Assembly (NCBI GenBank): GCA_902628045.1
Contig: CACOLU010000005.1
Coordinates: forward strand, 1 to 63,150
Direction: 5' to 3'
Length of the DNA stretch: 63,150 nt
From: an uncultured Candidatus Actinomarina sp.
Lineage (GTDB): Bacteria; Actinomycetota; Acidimicrobiia; Actinomarinales; Actinomarinaceae
The notes under the pieces were generated by a model. That model did not search any database and was not told the origin of the DNA. It worked only from the letters and a program-made list of their open reading frames with translations. Position 1 is the stretch's first letter. Every line of letters begins with the position of its first letter. The position numbers and the translations under genes were made by a program. Positions 1,967 to 9,096 of this stretch are shown in pieces.

Positions 1967-2951
1967 AAATATTTATCTAAACAATACTGAAGAATTAATT
2001 AAATATATTAACGAAGATTTACAAAATGAGAGCTTAATTATTCTCGATTCTGCGCTTGAACAATTTAAATTACATAGCAACTTAAATGCAAGTCATGTTT
2101 ACTTGAAGGTTTCTGAAGAAACAAAAAATTTAGAAACAGTTGAAAAAATTTGGGAAATAATGTTTTCATCAAATTTAAACAGATCACACGAAATAGTAAT
2201 TATTGGAGGCGGAGTTATGCTTGATCTCTGCTCTTTTGCTGCAAGCACATTTAAAAGAGGTATTTCCTATACATTAGTTCCATCTACTTTATTAGCTATG
2301 GTTGATGCATCTCATGGAGGTAAAAATGGTTTTAATAATGATTATGGAAAAAACCAGATTGGCACTTTTAATTTACCGAAGGGTGTAATTGTGTGTTTTG
2401 AACTACTAAATACATTGAAAGAAAAAGATTATAAAGATGGCTTAATCGAGCTTGTTAAACATGGACTAATTGGTAGTAAGGAAATATTTGATAAATTGAT
2501 TTCTGCAGAAGATTTCAAAATAGAAACTGAGGTAATCAAAAAAGGAATACAAATCAAAGAAGATATTGTAAAAGAAGATTATTTAGAAACTGGAAAAAGA
2601 AAATATTTAAATTTTGGACATACAATAGGCCACTTAATTGAGCAAGATTCAAAGTTTACTGTATCACACGGTGAAGCTGTAGCTATAGGAATGATTTACG
2701 AACTTGGACTATCAAAGAAACATTTTGGTTTACCGCAAGAAGTAATTGATTTATATGTATCATACCTGGAGAAACTTGATTATAAAAAATCATATGAATT
2801 TGAAAATAGTATCGATTACTTATTAGGAATTTTAAAAGATGATAAAAAAAGTAAATCTGATTCAGTAGATATTGTTTTACTGTCAGATGTATCGCAGCCA
2901 AATCTTATTTGTATAAGTTTTGATGAATTGATTGAGGTGATTAAAAATTAA
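1959..2951 (+). CDS. aroB: 3-dehydroquinate synthase
   Basis: IGGGVMLD, PSTLLAMVDASHGGKNG, LNFGHTIGHLIE, HGEAVAIGM motifs. Confidence 0.97.
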   Translation: MSRNIYLNNTEELIKYINEDLQNESLIILDSALEQFKLHSNLNASHVYLKVSEETKNLETVEKIWEIMFSSNLNRSHEIVIIGGGVMLDLCSFAASTFKRGISYTLVPSTLLAMVDASHGGKNGFNNDYGKNQIGTFNLPKGVIVCFELLNTLKEKDYKDGLIELVKHGLIGSKEIFDKLISAEDFKIETEVIKKGIQIKEDIVKEDYLETGKRKYLNFGHTIGHLIEQDSKFTVSHGEAVAIGMIYELGLSKKHFGLPQEVIDLYVSYLEKLDYKKSYEFENSIDYLLGILKDDKKSKSDSVDIVLLSDVSQPNLICISFDELIEVIKN

Positions 2952-3384
2952 AAGTATATATTTTATCAACGGTCCCAATCTTAATTTTTTAGGCGTGAGA
3001 GAAATTACACAATACGGTTCAACAAGCTATGATGAGTTAAAAAATTTAGTTAATTCTGAAGCTAAAAAGTTAAAAATTAAAACTGTTTTTTTTCAATCAA
3101 ATATTGAAGGTGAAATTGTAAATTATATTCAAAACCTAATTAATGATAAAAATTCATGGATTGTAATTAACCCTGGAGCATATACACATACAAGTATTGC
3201 AATAAGGGACGCTCTGCAGATTTATGCACAAAACAATAAAATAGTTGAAGTTCATATTTCAGATATAAATCAAAGAGAACAATTTAGAAAAACAAATTTA
3301 ATTTCTGATATTTGTAATAAATCAATTGTTGGCAGAGGTGTGCAAGGATATATTGAAGCACTGGAGTATATTAATGAACAGTAA
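2947..3384 (+). CDS. aroQ: Type II 3-dehydroquinate dehydratase, apparently starting at a non-canonical ATT codon
   Basis: The conserved INGPNLNFLGVRE motif lies upstream of the called GTG (2995). An in-frame TGA sits at 2938-2940 with no ATG/GTG/TTG between it and the motif. SD GAGGTG at 2934-2939 is 7 nt before ATT 2947. Also FQSNIEG, INPGAYTHTSIAIRDA, EVHISD. Confidence 0.93.
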   Translation: MKSIYFINGPNLNFLGVREITQYGSTSYDELKNLVNSEAKKLKIKTVFFQSNIEGEIVNYIQNLINDKNSWIVINPGAYTHTSIAIRDALQIYAQNNKIVEVHISDINQREQFRKTNLISDICNKSIVGRGVQGYIEALEYINEQ

Positions 3385-4195
3385 GCAAACAATTGCCTAT
3401 CAAGGTTCATCTGGCTCATATTCAGAAGAACTTTTAAAAAAGGAATATCCAAATTATCTGTACCATCCAACTGAGACGTTTACTGAATTAATATCCTATG
3501 TAAAATCTGATTCTGGAATTGGATTATTGCCTGTTGAAAATTCAATCGCAGGTACTGTGAATGAAGCATACGAAGAGCTAATAGATAGTGGTCTTAAAAT
3601 ACTTGCTGAATATGTGCTTAGAATTAACCACAGTTTAATAGGATTAGTTGGTTCAGATTTAGTAAATATTACAAATGTTATTTCACACCCACAGGCATTA
3701 CAGCAGTGCAGCAAGTTTATACAAAAGCATAACTTAAGAATCACTCCAGTCTTTGATACTGCCGGAAGTGTATTTGAAATTTTAGAAAATAATGAACTAA
3801 CTACGGCTGCGATTGCAGGAGATCATTTTGAAAGTGATGAAAGGTTCTTGATTTTAGAAAAAAATATATCAAATCATGAAGAAAATTATACAAGATTTCT
3901 TCTTATTGGAAATTTAGATTTAGATCAGAATCAAGTTAAAAATAAGTTTTCATCAGTGCTTATATCTGATGATAAGCCAGGCTCTCTATTACAGTCTTTG
4001 AATATTTTTAGTGACCTTGATATAAACCTTACAAAACTTGAATCACGACCAATACTGGGAAGACCCTGGGAGTATAAATTTTATATTGATTATGAATTAG
4101 AAAATTTGGAAAAACAATCTGAGCTTGAGGAAAAAATAAGTAAAGTTTGTAAAGAATTTAAGCTCTTGGGACATTATCCAAAAGCTATTCAGTAA
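3374..4195 (+). CDS. pheA: Prephenate dehydratase with ACT domain
   Basis: AYQGSSGSYSE, LPVENSIAGTV, SHPQALQQC, NYTRF, DKPGSL, NLTKLESRP, WEYKFYID. Start taken at ATG 3374 (MNSKQ). Confidence 0.95.
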   Translation: MNSKQTIAYQGSSGSYSEELLKKEYPNYLYHPTETFTELISYVKSDSGIGLLPVENSIAGTVNEAYEELIDSGLKILAEYVLRINHSLIGLVGSDLVNITNVISHPQALQQCSKFIQKHNLRITPVFDTAGSVFEILENNELTTAAIAGDHFESDERFLILEKNISNHEENYTRFLLIGNLDLDQNQVKNKFSSVLISDDKPGSLLQSLNIFSDLDINLTKLESRPILGRPWEYKFYIDYELENLEKQSELEEKISKVCKEFKLLGHYPKAIQ

Positions 4196-5264
4196 TTCTC
4201 CACTGAATACCTTGTTCAGAATCTTCTATTTGCAAACCAGAAGATTCTAATATATCTCGAACTTCATCAGAAAGCTTGTAATTTTTTTCGTTTCTTAACT
4301 TTGACCTTAGTAATATTAGTTTTTCAACTAAAATTTCAAAACGTTCGGTATTCTTCTTATTGGATTCTATCTGAATTTCTAAATTAGCAATTTCTTTTAA
4401 AGTAGATTTATCTATCGAATTTGCCTCAGTTTCAACATTATCTATTTTCTTGACAGAGCCATTTTTTTCTGAAACCAATAGCTTTTGTAGAATATCTAAA
4501 CTTTCTTCAGAATCTTTTTCGAAGACATGAGTCCCTTCTTTGTTTAAAATAGTTACATTTCCTAATCCAACAACTTTAAATGTTTCATTTTTTCCAGAAA
4601 TTATTAAGGCAGTATGTTCATCGATGCCAAGAATGTTTGAATAAGACTTATCTAAAAGTGTCTTCATTCTATTTTCGCCAACATAACTAAAGCTTGTATC
4701 ATGATTTCCACCCTCTGCATTATTAAAGTGAGGAACTACTGTACAAGATAGACCGTAAACATCTAATAAATTTAATCCTTTTTCCCAATAAGGGTCTTTA
4801 CCTACTTTATAAATTTCGTAAACCGGCAGTGTATGTTCTCCAAGAGTAGAGGCTGCTGCACTTGCAAATAAGCTTTTACCACCCTTTATCAGATGATTTT
4901 TTAAAGTTTGTTCAAACTCATTACCATGCCATAATTTGCTTGCATAACTTGGACTTCCTGGTCCAGCAAAAATAAATGATGCACTTTCTAATAATTGAAT
5001 TGATTTAAAGAAAGATTTTGTATTTAGCTCTTCAATTTTCCTGTAACTAGCTAGTTTCATTTCAACATTTAAACTTACTTTGTAAAAGTCTATAATTTTT
5101 TCAACGAGCTGATTAGCATTTTCTTGAAACCCAAATGGTGAGTCAATCATAAAAATACTTGAAGAATCATCTAATCCTTCAAGCAGTTCTCTATGGACAC
5201 TAACTAAATTAGGACTCGTTTCACCTGATCCTAAAATAGCTAATGATCCTAAAGCGTTTTTCAT
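4185..5264 (-). CDS. Peptidase S51 / cyanophycinase-like hydrolase fused to a C-terminal CysRS anticodon-binding-like helical domain
   Basis: LAILGSGE, IFAGPGSP, FASAAA (nucleophile Ser), VVPHFNN, GIDEHTALI; coiled linker; tail RSKLRNEKNYKLSDEVRDILESSGLQIEDSEQGIQW resembles the CysRS C-terminus. ATG 5264 is preceded by TATAAT-6 nt. Confidence 0.75.
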   Translation of the reverse strand: MKNALGSLAILGSGETSPNLVSVHRELLEGLDDSSSIFMIDSPFGFQENANQLVEKIIDFYKVSLNVEMKLASYRKIEELNTKSFFKSIQLLESASFIFAGPGSPSYASKLWHGNEFEQTLKNHLIKGGKSLFASAAASTLGEHTLPVYEIYKVGKDPYWEKGLNLLDVYGLSCTVVPHFNNAEGGNHDTSFSYVGENRMKTLLDKSYSNILGIDEHTALIISGKNETFKVVGLGNVTILNKEGTHVFEKDSEESLDILQKLLVSEKNGSVKKIDNVETEANSIDKSTLKEIANLEIQIESNKKNTERFEILVEKLILLRSKLRNEKNYKLSDEVRDILESSGLQIEDSEQGIQWRITE

Positions 5265-5315
5265 GAATCTATTATATATTTTTTTTGTACACAACTAAAG
5301 GTGTATAATTTAAAC

Positions 5316-6314
5316 ATGGCAAGTTTATTAGCTTTAATTCTTGAAAAATTTACAATCGAAATAATTCCTAGACTTCCATTGTTTCTTAGGACACCATTGT
5401 ATGTAAATATATTAAAACTTAGAAAAGTTCGTGATCGAATTAGGCTCGACGTAACAAGAAAAAATCCTACATTTCAAGACCGTTTAGATTATGCAATTGA
5501 TTCAAGAGCAAATCTGAATAATTCAGGTGAAAGAATATTACCTTTTAATGATGAAGTTAAAATTGAAGAAATTGAGGATTCTCCTGTAAAAATTTATAAA
5601 TTTACTCCAAAAAATGCAGAGACCGGAAAGTATGGTGTTTATTTTCATGGAGGAGGATATTTTGCGGGGAGCATTAAATCACATAAAAATTTTGTTTCAA
5701 TAATTTCTCAAAAATCAAATTTAGTAATTTATTTTTTTGAATATAGGCTTAGTCCAGAGCATAACTTTCCTGCTGCACATGAAGATGCAAAGATAGCTGT
5801 AGAATTTATTGATGCTCTTCATAAAGATGAGCACTCAATTTGGATGGGTGAATCAGCTGGAGGAGGTTTAGCAACAGGGCTTGTGGTAGATGATGGGTTT
5901 ATTTATAATCCTGACAGTCTCATTTTGCTTTCGCCCTGGCTTGATTTATCAGATGGATTTCAAGATAAAAGATTTTTTAAAAACAGAGATGTAACAATAA
6001 TTATTGAAGGAATGTATGAGGTTGGAGAGTTTTACGCAGGAGAGTACAGCACCACAAATCCAGTGTTATCTCCAGTTTATGCTGATATAAATAGTTTTCC
6101 AGACACTTTAATACAAGTATGCTCAGATGAATTACTTTACAATGATGCAATTGAATTTGTTAAAAAATTAAGAGACAAAAATACAAATGTCCAACTTCAA
6201 ACTTGGGATAAACTCTGGCATGCATGGCACTTTTTTCCAATTAAGGAAGCTTTTGAAGCCATAGATAATATAGCTGAATATATTAAGTCTACAGAACTTC
6301 ACTCTTCTAAATGA
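5316..6314 (+). CDS. Alpha/beta hydrolase, HSL-family esterase/lipase
   Basis: YFHGGGY oxyanion motif, EYRLSPEHNFPAAHED, GESAGG nucleophile elbow, LSPWLDL, late WHAWH. Start ATG 5316 follows TATAAT. Confidence 0.92.
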   Translation: MASLLALILEKFTIEIIPRLPLFLRTPLYVNILKLRKVRDRIRLDVTRKNPTFQDRLDYAIDSRANLNNSGERILPFNDEVKIEEIEDSPVKIYKFTPKNAETGKYGVYFHGGGYFAGSIKSHKNFVSIISQKSNLVIYFFEYRLSPEHNFPAAHEDAKIAVEFIDALHKDEHSIWMGESAGGGLATGLVVDDGFIYNPDSLILLSPWLDLSDGFQDKRFFKNRDVTIIIEGMYEVGEFYAGEYSTTNPVLSPVYADINSFPDTLIQVCSDELLYNDAIEFVKKLRDKNTNVQLQTWDKLWHAWHFFPIKEAFEAIDNIAEYIKSTELHSSK

Positions 6315-7045
6315 TGAAGTGCAAATCCAAAAGGTAATTCGAGTCTATTATCAGACATAACCTTTTCATTTTTTAGAATTCTATAAGTTTCATCATCTGC
6401 AGTAATTTTTCCATCGTTTAAAATTATACTTCTATTGCATATTTCTAATGCCATTGGTAAATCATGAGTCACAAGGATAACTGAAACTTCTAAATTTTTA
6501 AGTATATCTATAAGCTCTCTTCTTGATGCAGGATCTAAGTTTGAACTCGGTTCATCCAAAACTAGTAATTCAGGCTCTGAAGCAAGAACGCTAGCTATTG
6601 CTACCTTTCTTTTTTGACCAAAGCTTAGATGATGAGGTGGTTTGTCTTTAAATTGTAACATTTTGACTTGTTCAAGTGCTTTAATTGAATTTTTCTTGAC
6701 TAATTCGTCACTAAATCCAAAATTTTTTGGTCCAAACATTACATCTTCCAGCACAGTTGGCATAAAAAGTTGATCATCAGGATCCTGAAAAACCAAACCT
6801 ACAGACTTTCTAATTTGAGAGATATTTTCATCTGAAAAAGGCTTTTCATTTAATGTAATTTGTCCGTTTAAGTCACCTAGAATGCCATTTAAATGAAGAA
6901 TGAGAGTAGTTTTACCTGCTCCATTTGGCCCCAGCACAGCAAGTCTTTCCCCTTTTGATAAGCTTAGATTTATATTTTCGAGAGCTTTAAATCCATCTGG
7001 GTATTCAAAACTCAAATTATTTACATTTAGGTATTGCTTATTCAT
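6299..7045 (-). CDS. cbiO: ECF-type Co/Ni transporter ATPase (CbiO/NikO)
   Basis: GPNGAGKTT, VFQDPDDQLFMPTVLEDVMFGP, HLSFGQKRKVAIA, LDEPSSNLDP, VTHD. ATGA overlap with cbiQ. Confidence 0.92.
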   Translation of the reverse strand: MNKQYLNVNNLSFEYPDGFKALENINLSLSKGERLAVLGPNGAGKTTLILHLNGILGDLNGQITLNEKPFSDENISQIRKSVGLVFQDPDDQLFMPTVLEDVMFGPKNFGFSDELVKKNSIKALEQVKMLQFKDKPPHHLSFGQKRKVAIASVLASEPELLVLDEPSSNLDPASRRELIDILKNLEVSVILVTHDLPMALEICNRSIILNDGKITADDETYRILKNEKVMSDNRLELPFGFALHHLEE

Positions 7046-7806
7046 AGAGCGAGCCTATCAACAATACAAATTACAACTGAGAATATAGAAATTAGCAGAA
7101 TTAAATTAGATGAATTAAATTGTCGTGCCTCTAATTCTAATGTTCCTTTGAAACCCCGAGAAATCATTGAATTGTAAACTCTTTCTCCTCTTTCATACCC
7201 TCTTATTAAGAGAGCACCCGATGCAAATGCAAGTGGCTTTAATGTTCTTAACCCTTTTTCGGAATAACCTCTCGAGCGCATAGATATTTTTACTCTTTTT
7301 ACTTCGTCAATAAATACATCAATATATCTGATTGCAAAAGAAAATATAGAAATTAACAAAGGCGAAACTTTAAGTATTTGTAATCCATAAATTATTTCAA
7401 TATTAGACGTAGTGGCTGTAAGAACAATTGCTAAAGTGACACAGAGAGTTATTTTAATCAGAATTGATATCATTTCGTCGACTCCAGTTTTGTAAATACT
7501 CAAACTAAATAAAGTGGTTAAAATTTCTCCGTTCCCTTTACTTATAAACGGCAAAAATAAAGCGAATAATATGAACGGTATATCTATTGAAAGTCTTTTT
7601 AAATACGTTTTGGGTTGTAATTTTGAAATAATCAACAATCCTGCAACTATTAATGCCTGTAATAAAATCAAAACATTATTTTCTAAACTCAAAAAAGCAA
7701 TAGAAAGAATAATTGCAAAAAAAGAAATTAATTTTATTTCAGGTTTGATTTTTACTAAATACGAGTCACTATGAGTTTCTAAATGATGAGAATGGGATGT
7801 TTCCAT
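7042..7806 (-). CDS. cbiQ: ECF-type Co/Ni transporter transmembrane T component (CbiQ/NikQ) with His-rich N-terminus
   Basis: Hydrophobic helices; AIRYIDVFIDE, SMRSRG, LLIRGYERGERVYNSMISRGF (xRx motifs); N-terminus METSHSHHLETHS. Confidence 0.9.
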   Translation of the reverse strand: METSHSHHLETHSDSYLVKIKPEIKLISFFAIILSIAFLSLENNVLILLQALIVAGLLIISKLQPKTYLKRLSIDIPFILFALFLPFISKGNGEILTTLFSLSIYKTGVDEMISILIKITLCVTLAIVLTATTSNIEIIYGLQILKVSPLLISIFSFAIRYIDVFIDEVKRVKISMRSRGYSEKGLRTLKPLAFASGALLIRGYERGERVYNSMISRGFKGTLELEARQFNSSNLILLISIFSVVICIVDRLAL

Positions 7807-7820
7807 ATTTGTATATCTTA

Positions 7821-7837
7821 ATGCAAATAATTTGCAA
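7821..7837. promoter_or_regulatory. Nur/Fur-family operator upstream of cbiQO (ATGCAA-N5-TTGCAA)
   Basis: Perfect 7-1-7 palindrome TGCAAAT-A-ATTTGCA (7822-7836), about 15 nt upstream of the cbiQ ATG and just downstream of the Fur-family gene. Matches the Streptomyces Nur consensus tTGCaa-N5-ttGCAA as I recall it. Confidence 0.75.
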
Positions 7838-7845
7838 TAAAAGAT

Positions 7846-8256
7846 TTATTTGCAATTTTTACAAAATCCAGAATATATGAAGTGATTTGTTATCTCTCTA
7901 AAATTTGTTTTGCTTGTTATAAGATCGTTTACTTTTTTGGATGTTTTTATATCAAGATCTGAAATATCTCCACAAGATTCACATACAATATGAATATTTG
8001 AGTGAACATCTTTCACAAAATACAAACCTGAACCGTGTACTTGGTGAGAATGTTCAATTAAGTTTATGTTTTCTAAAAGTTCTAATGTTCTGTATACAGT
8101 AGCTAAGTCTATATTTTTATCTTTTTTTAACGAAAGTTTGTGTAGTTCTTCAACAGTAAAATGTTTGTGTCCAGATGTTTCAAGAATTTTGCAAACAACT
8201 TCTCTTGCATTAGTTATTCTCTTGCCTCTTTTTCGTAATTCATTAACGAAATCCAT
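7846..8256 (-). CDS. nur: Fur-family metalloregulator, Nur (nickel uptake regulator)-like
   Basis: KRITNARE, HKHFTVEE, DLATVYRTLELL, HSHQVHG (cf. Nur HAHLGHG), IHIVCESC, NHF..GFCKNC. Start taken at ATG 8256 with TATAAT at 8272-8267. Confidence 0.85.
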   Translation of the reverse strand: MDFVNELRKRGKRITNAREVVCKILETSGHKHFTVEELHKLSLKKDKNIDLATVYRTLELLENINLIEHSHQVHGSGLYFVKDVHSNIHIVCESCGDISDLDIKTSKKVNDLITSKTNFREITNHFIYSGFCKNCK

Positions 8257-8290
8257 ATTCAAGTATATTATATGTCTGACGGGCAAAATT

Positions 8291-8764
8291 ATGAAAAAAA
8301 AGTTTCTTAGAATATTAAACAGATACAGTTTACTTTATCTCCCTACCGGATGGGTGCTTGGACTTGCTGTTATTTTTATTGCTTATGAACCAATTACTGT
8401 TCTTTACTTTTTGAGTTTATTTGTTTTAGGTATATTTGGGTTTCTGATTTTTTATACATCAAATAGAGACATGGTTGATGAATCTTATAATGTATCGGAT
8501 TACCAATATTCAATAATTGAGTTTTACTCAGACTACTGACTAGGTTGTACTGCTTCAAAATTCATAGTTGATGAATTTAAAAAGAAAAATCCAGATGTTT
8601 TTTTTGTTTCTATAAATGCAAGTAAGCAAAAAGATCACAAGTTTATTGAAAGATATAAATTAAATAATACTCCAACGTATGTATTGATTAATAATAAAGG
8701 CGAAAAAATTGGAAGAAGAGTTGGTACTTTTTATCCAAAGTATTTCGAAAATAAAATAGTCTAA
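8291..8764 (+). CDS. Membrane-anchored thioredoxin-fold selenoprotein (157 aa; Sec83 in U-L-G-C)
   Basis: N-terminal hydrophobic helices, then IIEFYSDY-TGA-LGC. The frame continues open for 74 codons with Trx features (FFVSINA, YKLNNTPTYVLINNKGEKIGRRVG) to TAA 8762-8764, overlapping the csaA stop. Confidence 0.85.
8558..8578 (+). promoter_or_regulatory. Candidate bacterial SECIS hairpin
   Basis: AAATTCAT-AGTTG-ATGAATTT: perfect 8-bp stem starting 18 nt after the UGA. The 5-nt loop has G at position 2 followed by U, and lies 26 nt from the UGA. Confidence 0.6.
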
Positions 8765-9096
8765 GACACTTTATCACCAAGCTCAGCTTTATCTGATGGC
8801 TGAAGTAGTAAAACATCTCCATTTTTAGATATTGATCCTAGAACTAGGCATTCACTCATAAAAGGCCCTATTTGTTTACTTCCAAGATTTATAATTGCTA
8901 CACAAGGCTTTTCTTTAAGTTCGTCTAAGTCATAGTTTGTTATTTGAGCACTTGTTTTTTTAGTACCAATTAAATCACCAAAATCTATGGTTAATTTGTA
9001 TGCTGGTTTTATAGCTTCTTTAAAAATTTCTGCGTTAATTATTTTTCCAACACGAATATCTAATTCAAAAAAATTAGTTGATTTATCACTTTCCAT
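8761..9096 (-). CDS. csaA: CsaA / Trbp111-like tRNA-binding OB-fold protein
   Basis: LDIRVGKII, KPAYKLTIDFG, KTSAQIT, INLGSKQIGPFMSECLVLG, GDKVS. Confidence 0.92.
   Translation of the reverse strand: MESDKSTNFFELDIRVGKIINAEIFKEAIKPAYKLTIDFGDLIGTKKTSAQITNYDLDELKEKPCVAIINLGSKQIGPFMSECLVLGSISKNGDVLLLQPSDKAELGDKVS

Follow-up and report, generated by a model that had tools for sequence, protein, structure and literature searches.

The nur-nikQ-nikO locus

The stretch of DNA analyzed here (63,150 nucleotides, GenBank assembly GCA_902628045.1, contig CACOLU010000005.1, positions 1 to 63,150; hereafter the window) is contig C5 of a Candidatus Actinomarina genome of 882 kb in 33 contigs, with 32% GC and a completeness of 70%, and it carries a predicted nickel-uptake locus on its minus strand. 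In the direction of transcription, nur (7846–8256, ATG at 8256), which encodes a predicted nickel-responsive Fur-family repressor of 136 aa, is followed by nikQ/cbiQ (7042–7806), the T component of an energy-coupling factor (ECF) importer, and by nikO/cbiO (6299–7045), its ATPase or A component, with a 4-nt overlap between the two importer genes. From the stop of nur to the ATG of nikQ there are 39 nt (7807–7845), which hold a predicted Nur box delineated by phylogenetic footprinting (7821–7837) and a candidate −10 hexamer, TAAGAT (7815–7820, minus strand), while a selenoprotein gene lies head-to-head with nur on its other side. The features listed in an initial annotation of this DNA, namely, the HSHQVHG and NHF motifs, the 39-nt gap and its palindrome, the TTGCAA half-site at 7850–7855, and a 34-nt gap between nur and the selenoprotein gene, are all present in place.

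Near-identical loci occur in single-cell and metagenome assemblies assigned to 'Candidatus Actinomarina' or OCS155. For comparison, the orthologous nur locus was taken from 20 genomes of the genus, in which Nur identity ranges from 100% down to approximately 50%; the scans for motifs, superoxide dismutase (SOD), and urease covered 31 genomes of the genus. The synteny of nikO is kept in all 20 related loci.

Identity of the regulator

The product of 7846–8256 contains a Fur-family domain (PF01475, E 2e-23), with HSHQVHG at residues 69–75 and NHF at residues 124–126. When solved structures are searched, the best PDB match is Streptomyces coelicolor Nur (ScNur; 3EYY, E 8e-22, 80.8 bits), followed by Fur proteins at 52 bits or less, FurB/Zur of M. 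tuberculosis at 49, PerR at 42, and ScZur (3MWM) at 30. An ungapped alignment to ScNur places the Ni-site residues H70/H72/H126 at H69/H71/H125 of the window protein and the M-site residues H33/H90 at H32/H89; moreover, both CxxC pairs and the DNA-contact residues Y56/R57 of ScNur are retained. In a set of 27 distinct Nur sequences from Actinomarina, the triad of the Ni-site is nearly fixed (H70 in 27/27, H72 in 26/27, and H126 in 25/27) and the Cys4 residues are near-invariant; this triad has been reported to be conserved in Nur orthologs only (PMC2691836). The protein scores far below every cut-off of the Fur, PerR, Irr, and Zur equivalog models of NCBIfam, a collection that has no Nur-specific model.

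A maximum-likelihood (ML) tree was built from 10 Actinomarina sequences, four Nur-like proteins of other Acidimicrobiia, ScNur, four Fur references, and the second Fur paralog of the genome. The window protein shares one clade (support 99/97) with ScNur and the Nur-like proteins of other Acidimicrobiia, and the Fur references and the second paralog fall outside this clade. The predicted identity of the 7846–8256 protein as an ortholog of S. coelicolor Nur, rather than a Zur- or Fur-like regulator, is well supported. It had been proposed in the initial annotation on the basis of the Ni-site histidines, and the PDB scores, the ML tree, and the H70/H72/H126 triad all agree with it; the clustering with Zur or Fur that would have spoken for another identity was not seen, as the tree places the protein with ScNur, and the comparison with Zur was made by the PDB scores.

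The M-site of the Actinomarina proteins is remodeled. H33 and H90 are present in 27/27 sequences, but H86 in 7/27 and H88 in 1/27, and the lost histidines are mostly replaced by Tyr/Glu and Asn, with Asn in place of H88 in 19/27; an acidic residue persists at the position of E101. Nur-like proteins of other Acidimicrobiia keep HxH or HHH at the H86–H88 position. In ScNur, DNA binding is lost with the substitution H88A but not with H86A (PMC2691836). Metal activation in the genus may therefore lean more on the Ni-site. Because the M-site is common to the Fur family and does not define Nur, its remodeling marks a variant and is no reason for exclusion.

The second and only other Fur-family gene of the genome (C12:10650–11087, minus strand) encodes a protein with an HPHHHH motif whose scores are 52 bits against Fur and 33.6 bits against Nur. 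Transcribed divergently from this gene is a metal ABC operon of the Znu/Tro-like kind (C12:11199–13907, plus strand), which encodes an ATPase and a permease together with a His-rich lipoprotein; the second Fur-family protein is probably a Zur or a Mn/Fe regulator.

Predicted operators upstream of nikQ and nikM

The palindrome at 7821–7837 reads ATGCAA-ATAAT-TTGCAA, or TTGCAA-ATTAT-TTGCAT on the coding strand, and its extended form, TTATTGCAA-N5-TTGCATTAA, covers 7818–7840. It fits the published consensus of the Nur box, tTGCaa-N5-ttGCAA (PMC2691836). The sequence TTATTGCAA-N5-TTGCA(T/G)TAA is found in the nur-nikQ gap of 20/20 related loci with invariant hexamers, while the spacers vary (ATTAT, ATAAT, GTAAT, ATAGT, TTGAT, ATCAT, AACGT, ACCAT, and others) and the flanks vary too. 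In the window as a whole, TTGCAA-N5-TTGCAA with at most one mismatch occurs four times, against 0.64 expected. That 7821–7837 is the Nur operator of nikQ-nikO, as the initial annotation had suggested, is a well-supported prediction from its conservation as a 6-5-6 box at every one of these loci.

Two other sequences were considered as additional operators and rejected. The isolated TTGCAA half-site at 7850–7855, to which the initial annotation had also drawn attention, lies within the last codons of the nur coding sequence (N-C-K-stop) and is not conserved, reading TGTAAA in most relatives; it is regarded as a chance occurrence outside the system. Similarly, the one-mismatch box-like sequence at 8178–8194, also inside the nur coding sequence (codons V-C-K-I-L-E), is kept in close relatives only, diverges at synonymous sites elsewhere, and is likewise attributed to chance.

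A scan of the whole 882-kb genome for TTGCAA-N5-TTGCAA with at most one mismatch returned 14 matches, two of which are perfect. One of the perfect boxes (C9:1998–2014) is located 28 nt 5' of the nikM-PDGLE open reading frame (ORF), whose product starts with MHVPDGF, so that the site anticipated before nikM in the initial annotation does exist. This box is kept in 25/25 relatives, and in 24 of these 28–30 nt separate its end from the ATG; in S. coelicolor, Nur binds the nikM promoter (PMC2691836). The pattern ATTGCAA-N5-TTGCA matches all 31 genus genomes, nearly always in the upstream regions of nikQ and nikM, and a reversed-pattern control gave no match in the same 31 genomes. The consensus from 39 distinct sites at both loci is TTATTGCAAA-nnn-tTTGCAnTAA, with an information content of approximately 2 bits at the half-site positions and 0–0.5 bits in the spacer.

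The other perfect match, TTGCAA-GGCTC-TTGCAA at C2:50069–50085, falls inside an ORF of 232 aa, and relatives do not have it at the corresponding locus. This match is attributed to chance and shows that one perfect box does not by itself suffice as evidence. Further matches are few and genome-specific, and those examined are coding; C2:50069 and G008:533191, which were considered as extra members of the regulon, were discarded as lying inside coding regions and not being common between genomes.

Seven relatives show one nickel locus without the other: nikM and its box are present without the nur/nikQO locus in four (G003, G006, G007, and G024), while nikM is missing from two with nur-nikQO (G005 and G009) and from one in which only a nikQ-type box is seen (G045). 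Most of these assemblies are 71–87% complete, and the missing loci may reflect assembly gaps; G007 consists of 7 contigs and G009 of 5.

Predicted promoter geometry

Upstream of nikM, TTGCAA-N5-TTGCAA is followed by 16 nt, the hexamer TATAAT (or TATACT), a further 6–7 nt, and the ATG, an arrangement in which the right half-site would occupy the −35 position of a leaderless promoter. Because NikM uses its N-terminal Met as a metal ligand, the start codon is fixed, and the nikM mRNA would therefore have to be leaderless. Upstream of nikQ, the right half-site abuts TAAnnT (TAAGAT in the window), which stands 6–8 nt 5' of the ATG in most of the 20 relatives, a geometry suggestive of a leaderless or near-leaderless internal promoter whose spacer is filled by the operator. 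For nur itself, the promoter scan proposes TTCATA-17-TATAAT (10/12 matches), with the candidate −10 TATAAT at 8267–8272 (minus strand), 10 nt 5' of the ATG, and TATAAT or ATTATA in relatives. No box accompanies the nur promoter, and autoregulation is therefore not indicated.

The predicted nickel importer

The nikQ product exceeds the cut-off of ECF_T_CbiQ (TIGR02454, 136.1 bits versus 111.8) and matches PF02361 (3e-31), and a single CbiQ/EcfT gene, of the CbiQ type, is present in each of the six genomes checked. The idea that vitamin S-components also draw on the QO module was considered and not retained. The nikO product matches PF00005 (E 1.8e-31) and reaches 228–236 bits on ECF ATPase models, which is under their equivalog cut-offs; on the cbiO model TIGR01166 it likewise falls below the cut-off (195.6 bits versus 211.8). 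The N-terminus of NikQ is His-rich (METSHSHHLETH; 7765–7806, minus strand), the stretch being found genus-wide as x-(S/T)-H-x-H-H-L and in partial form in NikQ of other Acidimicrobiia, and this tail could bind nickel on the T component.

The substrate-capture gene, nikM-PDGLE, is found at C9:1034–1969 (minus strand) and encodes a PF01891 domain (3.5e-51) with a PDGLE domain (PF13190, 32 bits) fused at the C-terminus. The NikM protein has M1 and His at positions 2, 67, and 183; in TtNikM2, M1, H2, and H67 are nickel ligands, and the NikM/CbiM site also binds Co2+ (PMC3945884). The gene is solitary, between genes for an alpha/beta hydrolase and a uracil-DNA glycosylase, and it stands on a different contig from nikQO, which is on C5; in the one-contig relative G008 the two loci are approximately 255 kb apart. 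The all-in-one-operon layout of Nik/Cbi importers was thus not encountered in Actinomarina, and the regulon, which the initial annotation had described as compact, is not fully so.

Nickel use and superoxide dismutase

The gene for nickel superoxide dismutase (Ni-SOD), sodN (PF09055, 143–152 bits, Ni-hook HCDLPCGVY), is present in 23/31 genus genomes. Fe/Mn SOD was detected in 0/31, control genomes being positive, and urease in 0/31, by which urease is discarded as a nickel sink in these genomes. Of the Ni, Fe, and Mn types of SOD, to which the search was confined and which leave out Cu/Zn SOD, Ni-SOD alone was found in the genus, and it is probably the main consumer of nickel.

Control over the choice of SOD, with sodF repressed and sodN indirectly activated, is a property of the Streptomyces regulon and not of the protein family. 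The initial annotation had pointed to this role of Nur and to sodN as a place to look for the motif, and a Nur box at sodN acting as an SOD switch was rejected: neither the Nur motif nor a half-site occurs within 400 nt 5' of sodN in seven relatives. With no box at sodN and no Fe/Mn SOD in the 31 genomes, the sodF/sodN arm of Streptomyces does not exist here, and the regulon concerns uptake only.

The adjoining selenoprotein gene

The ATG of nur is separated by 34 nt from the ATG (8291) of a head-to-head gene on the plus strand (8291–8764, 157 codons) that encodes a membrane-anchored, thioredoxin-like UxxC selenoprotein. The product has a thioredoxin Pfam match, and an in-frame TGA (8537–8539) gives U-L-G-C; the TGA stands at the same codon in 19/19 complete orthologs, within the invariant IIEFYSDY-U-LGCTAS, and the sequence downstream is conserved. 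A SECIS-like hairpin of 8 bp (8558–8578) begins 21 nt past the UGA, and in three lineages a T-A pair in it is replaced by C-G, a compensatory change; the folding energy of the hairpin is unexceptional for AT-rich sequence (z −0.12). The genome encodes tRNA-Sec, without selA or selB beside it, and SelA at C1:70411–71487. The selenoprotein gene looks genuine. No match to SelA (PF03841) passed the cut-off in G009 or in the 87%-complete, one-contig G008, both of which keep tRNA-Sec and the in-frame TGA; the reason is either a gap in the assemblies or divergence of SelA.

In the 34-nt gap (8257–8290), the candidate −10 hexamers of nur (TATAAT, minus strand) and of the selenoprotein gene (TATTAT, plus strand) overlap, so that each −35 region falls inside the coding sequence of the other gene. 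It is a doubtful possibility that such back-to-back hexamers couple the transcription of the two genes by promoter interference. The selenoprotein gene is flanked on its other side by a tRNA-binding-domain gene (8761–9096, minus strand).

Proposed regulation and alternative explanations

The system is very probably governed by a Nur ortholog that, in its nickel-loaded form, represses an ECF nickel importer through two 6-5-6 operators. When Ni2+ is sufficient, nickel-loaded Nur dimers would bind both operators (TTATTGCAA-N5-TTGCAaTAA), of which one lies in the 39-nt gap 5' of nikQ-nikO, abutting TAAnnT, and the other lies 5' of nikM-PDGLE, where its right half-site would double as the −35 element (TTGCAA-16 nt-TATAAT-6 nt-ATG). 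Bound Nur would occlude RNA polymerase and thereby switch off the sole ECF-type nickel importer; when nickel is scarce, Nur would dissociate and the importer would be produced. The sequences establish the homology, the diagnostic residues, the conservation and placement of the operators, the size of the regulon, and the occurrence of Ni-SOD; the dependence of binding on nickel, repression as opposed to activation, the internal promoter, and nickel instead of cobalt as the substrate are predictions.

Several observations weigh against this scheme. Within the genus, H86 and H88 are not conserved, and metal activation of Actinomarina Nur may differ, since H88 is lost and its replacement by alanine deprives ScNur of DNA binding. 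The reference set of the ML tree lacks Zur and PerR sequences, and the comparison with Zur rests on the PDB scores. A search with the Ni-hook expression found no sodN in the window's own 70%-complete genome, and for this reason the nickel sink is deduced from congeners. Because NikM/CbiM sites can also bind Co2+, the specificity of the importer for nickel is likewise a presumption. Finally, the presumed nikQ promoter has no good −35 element and was not called as a candidate by a simple sigma-70 scan, and no terminator-like structure was found between nur and nikQ, so that the box could instead act on read-through from the nur promoter.

The last of these points leads to a different arrangement, in which nur, nikQ, and nikO are co-transcribed from the nur promoter and elongation is blocked by Nur in the 39-nt gap, uncoupling the synthesis of the transporter from that of its regulator. 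The missing terminator, the uncalled promoter, the poor −35, and the shortness of the 39-nt gap are compatible with such a roadblock; however, most of the 20 loci have TAAnnT at a canonical leaderless spacing (6–8 nt) before the ATG of nikQ, occlusion at nikQ is suggested by analogy with nikM, whose box clearly overlaps a promoter, and repression by roadblock is usually weak, all of which make this arrangement unlikely, if still the most credible competitor to occlusion. It is less probable still that the system handles cobalt or another metal, with Co2+ or Zn2+ sensed by the Fur-family protein and cobalt imported by a CbiM-type transporter. The square-planar N4 site of NikM/CbiM accommodates Co2+ as well (PMC3945884), the Pfam and NCBIfam names of the components say 'cobalt', and the common M-site is remodeled, but the protein conserves the Ni-site triad, for which exclusivity to Nur orthologs has been reported, no CbiN is present, the genus has Ni-SOD without an Fe/Mn alternative, and the operator is of the Nur-specific 6-5-6 type and not the single-base-spaced Fur/Zur/Per type.

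The initial annotation had further envisioned a Ni-Se oxidative-stress module in which Nur also controls the divergent selenoprotein gene. The pair is head-to-head, with a gap of 33–35 nt, at every one of the 19 complete loci in the genus, and the candidate −10 hexamers overlap; however, no Nur half-site occurs in the gap in any one of 20 relatives, the sites at 8178–8194 and 7850 are unconserved, and the motif is confined to two loci per genome, both of them elsewhere. Conservation of the layout across Acidimicrobiia did not hold either, as it is confined to the genus and no selenoprotein homolog adjoins the Nur-like genes at four other Acidimicrobiia loci. Within the genus, the tRNA-binding gene is equally syntenic, and the adjacency of nur and the selenoprotein gene therefore carries little information. 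A module of this kind is highly improbable, and the selenoprotein gene is best seen as a neighbor, nothing tying its product to Nur. Least credible of all, to the point of being nearly negligible, is the idea that no regulatory protein binds the palindrome, which would then be an AT-rich inverted repeat due to chance or a structural element, for instance a weak terminator of nur. The genome is AT-rich, palindromic AT-rich hexamers are common, and a perfect match does occur in a coding sequence (C2:50069), yet the half-sites stay invariant while spacer and flanks change among loci with protein identities down to approximately 50%, the same motif precedes the functionally linked nikM, the reversed control is empty in 31 genomes, and the palindrome has neither a T-tract nor a GC stem. 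Occlusion of both promoters by nickel-loaded Nur is the reading retained below.

Relation to known systems

The switch formed by Nur, the Nur box, and a nickel ECF importer is of a known kind and involves no new mechanism; the split importer, the remodeled M-site, and the uptake-only regulon are minor variants. The regulator resembles ScNur (3EYY; An et al. 2009, PMC2691836; Kim et al. 2014, PMC3919588) in its Fur fold, the H70/H72/H126 triad, the Cys-X-X-Cys pairs, and Y56/R57, and the resemblance extends to the 6-5-6 operator TTGCAA-N5-TTGCAA and its placement before nikM of an ECF nickel importer. Unlike ScNur, the Actinomarina protein has lost the M-site residues His86/His88, and the identity is modest (80.8 bits); unlike the ScNur regulon, that of Actinomarina is restricted to the importer, without sodF or a box at sodN, and nur is linked to nikQO. 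The importer is comparable to NikMNQO/NikKMLQO (Rodionov/Eitinger; Zhang et al. 2009, PMC2667541; PMC3945884), with an M component of the form M1-H2...H67, a CbiQ-type T component, and a single CbiO ATPase; the PDGLE domain may correspond to the extra small transmembrane module (N, or K and L) of these systems. It differs from these in that its genes are divided between two loci, each with an operator, in that PDGLE is fused to NikM, and in the His-rich N-terminus of NikQ. In the NikR-nikABCDE system of E. coli and Helicobacter, a nickel-loaded repressor also turns off nickel import; however, NikR is a ribbon-helix-helix protein with a different operator, and its target is a canonical ABC importer and not an ECF importer.

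No description of this regulon came up in a literature search on Actinomarina and nickel. A single sensor acting at two operators would control the sole ECF importer of Candidatus Actinomarina, which is among the smallest and most abundant free-living marine actinobacteria, and if Ni-SOD is its sole SOD (the search covered the Ni, Fe, and Mn types), the defense against oxidative stress in surface seawater would depend centrally on the supply of nickel. As a more speculative and rather doubtful extension, Actinomarina Nur may be a naturally minimized sensor that works on the Ni-site and Cys4 alone and governs, through its two-operator regulon, the only route by which the cell can metallate Ni-SOD. 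The genus is in this respect a natural test of whether the Ni-site alone suffices to drive Nur.

The Nur/6-5-6-box system, characterized in Streptomyces, also reaches the class Acidimicrobiia. Unlike Actinomarina, other Acidimicrobiia keep a single nikM-PDGLE-nikQ-nikO operon, which is intact and adjoined by a Nur-like gene in two genomes (72% and 54% GC); in a third, the Nur-like gene adjoins a NiCoT-like permease. The 54%-GC genome has TTATTGCAA-ATAAT-TCGCAA 5' of nikM, and the remaining loci show weaker TGCAA/TGCGA-N5 palindromes. Because Nur-like genes adjoin nickel importers in these genomes, the pairing of Nur with a nickel importer looks ancestral in Acidimicrobiia. Nur-like regulators may control differing types of importer across the class; at locus L055 (G029:C16), a Nur-clade protein (HVHLGHG...RHFA; 5996–6427, minus strand) is encoded beside a metal ABC importer of the Znu/Tro type (2126–5927) and not beside an ECF importer.

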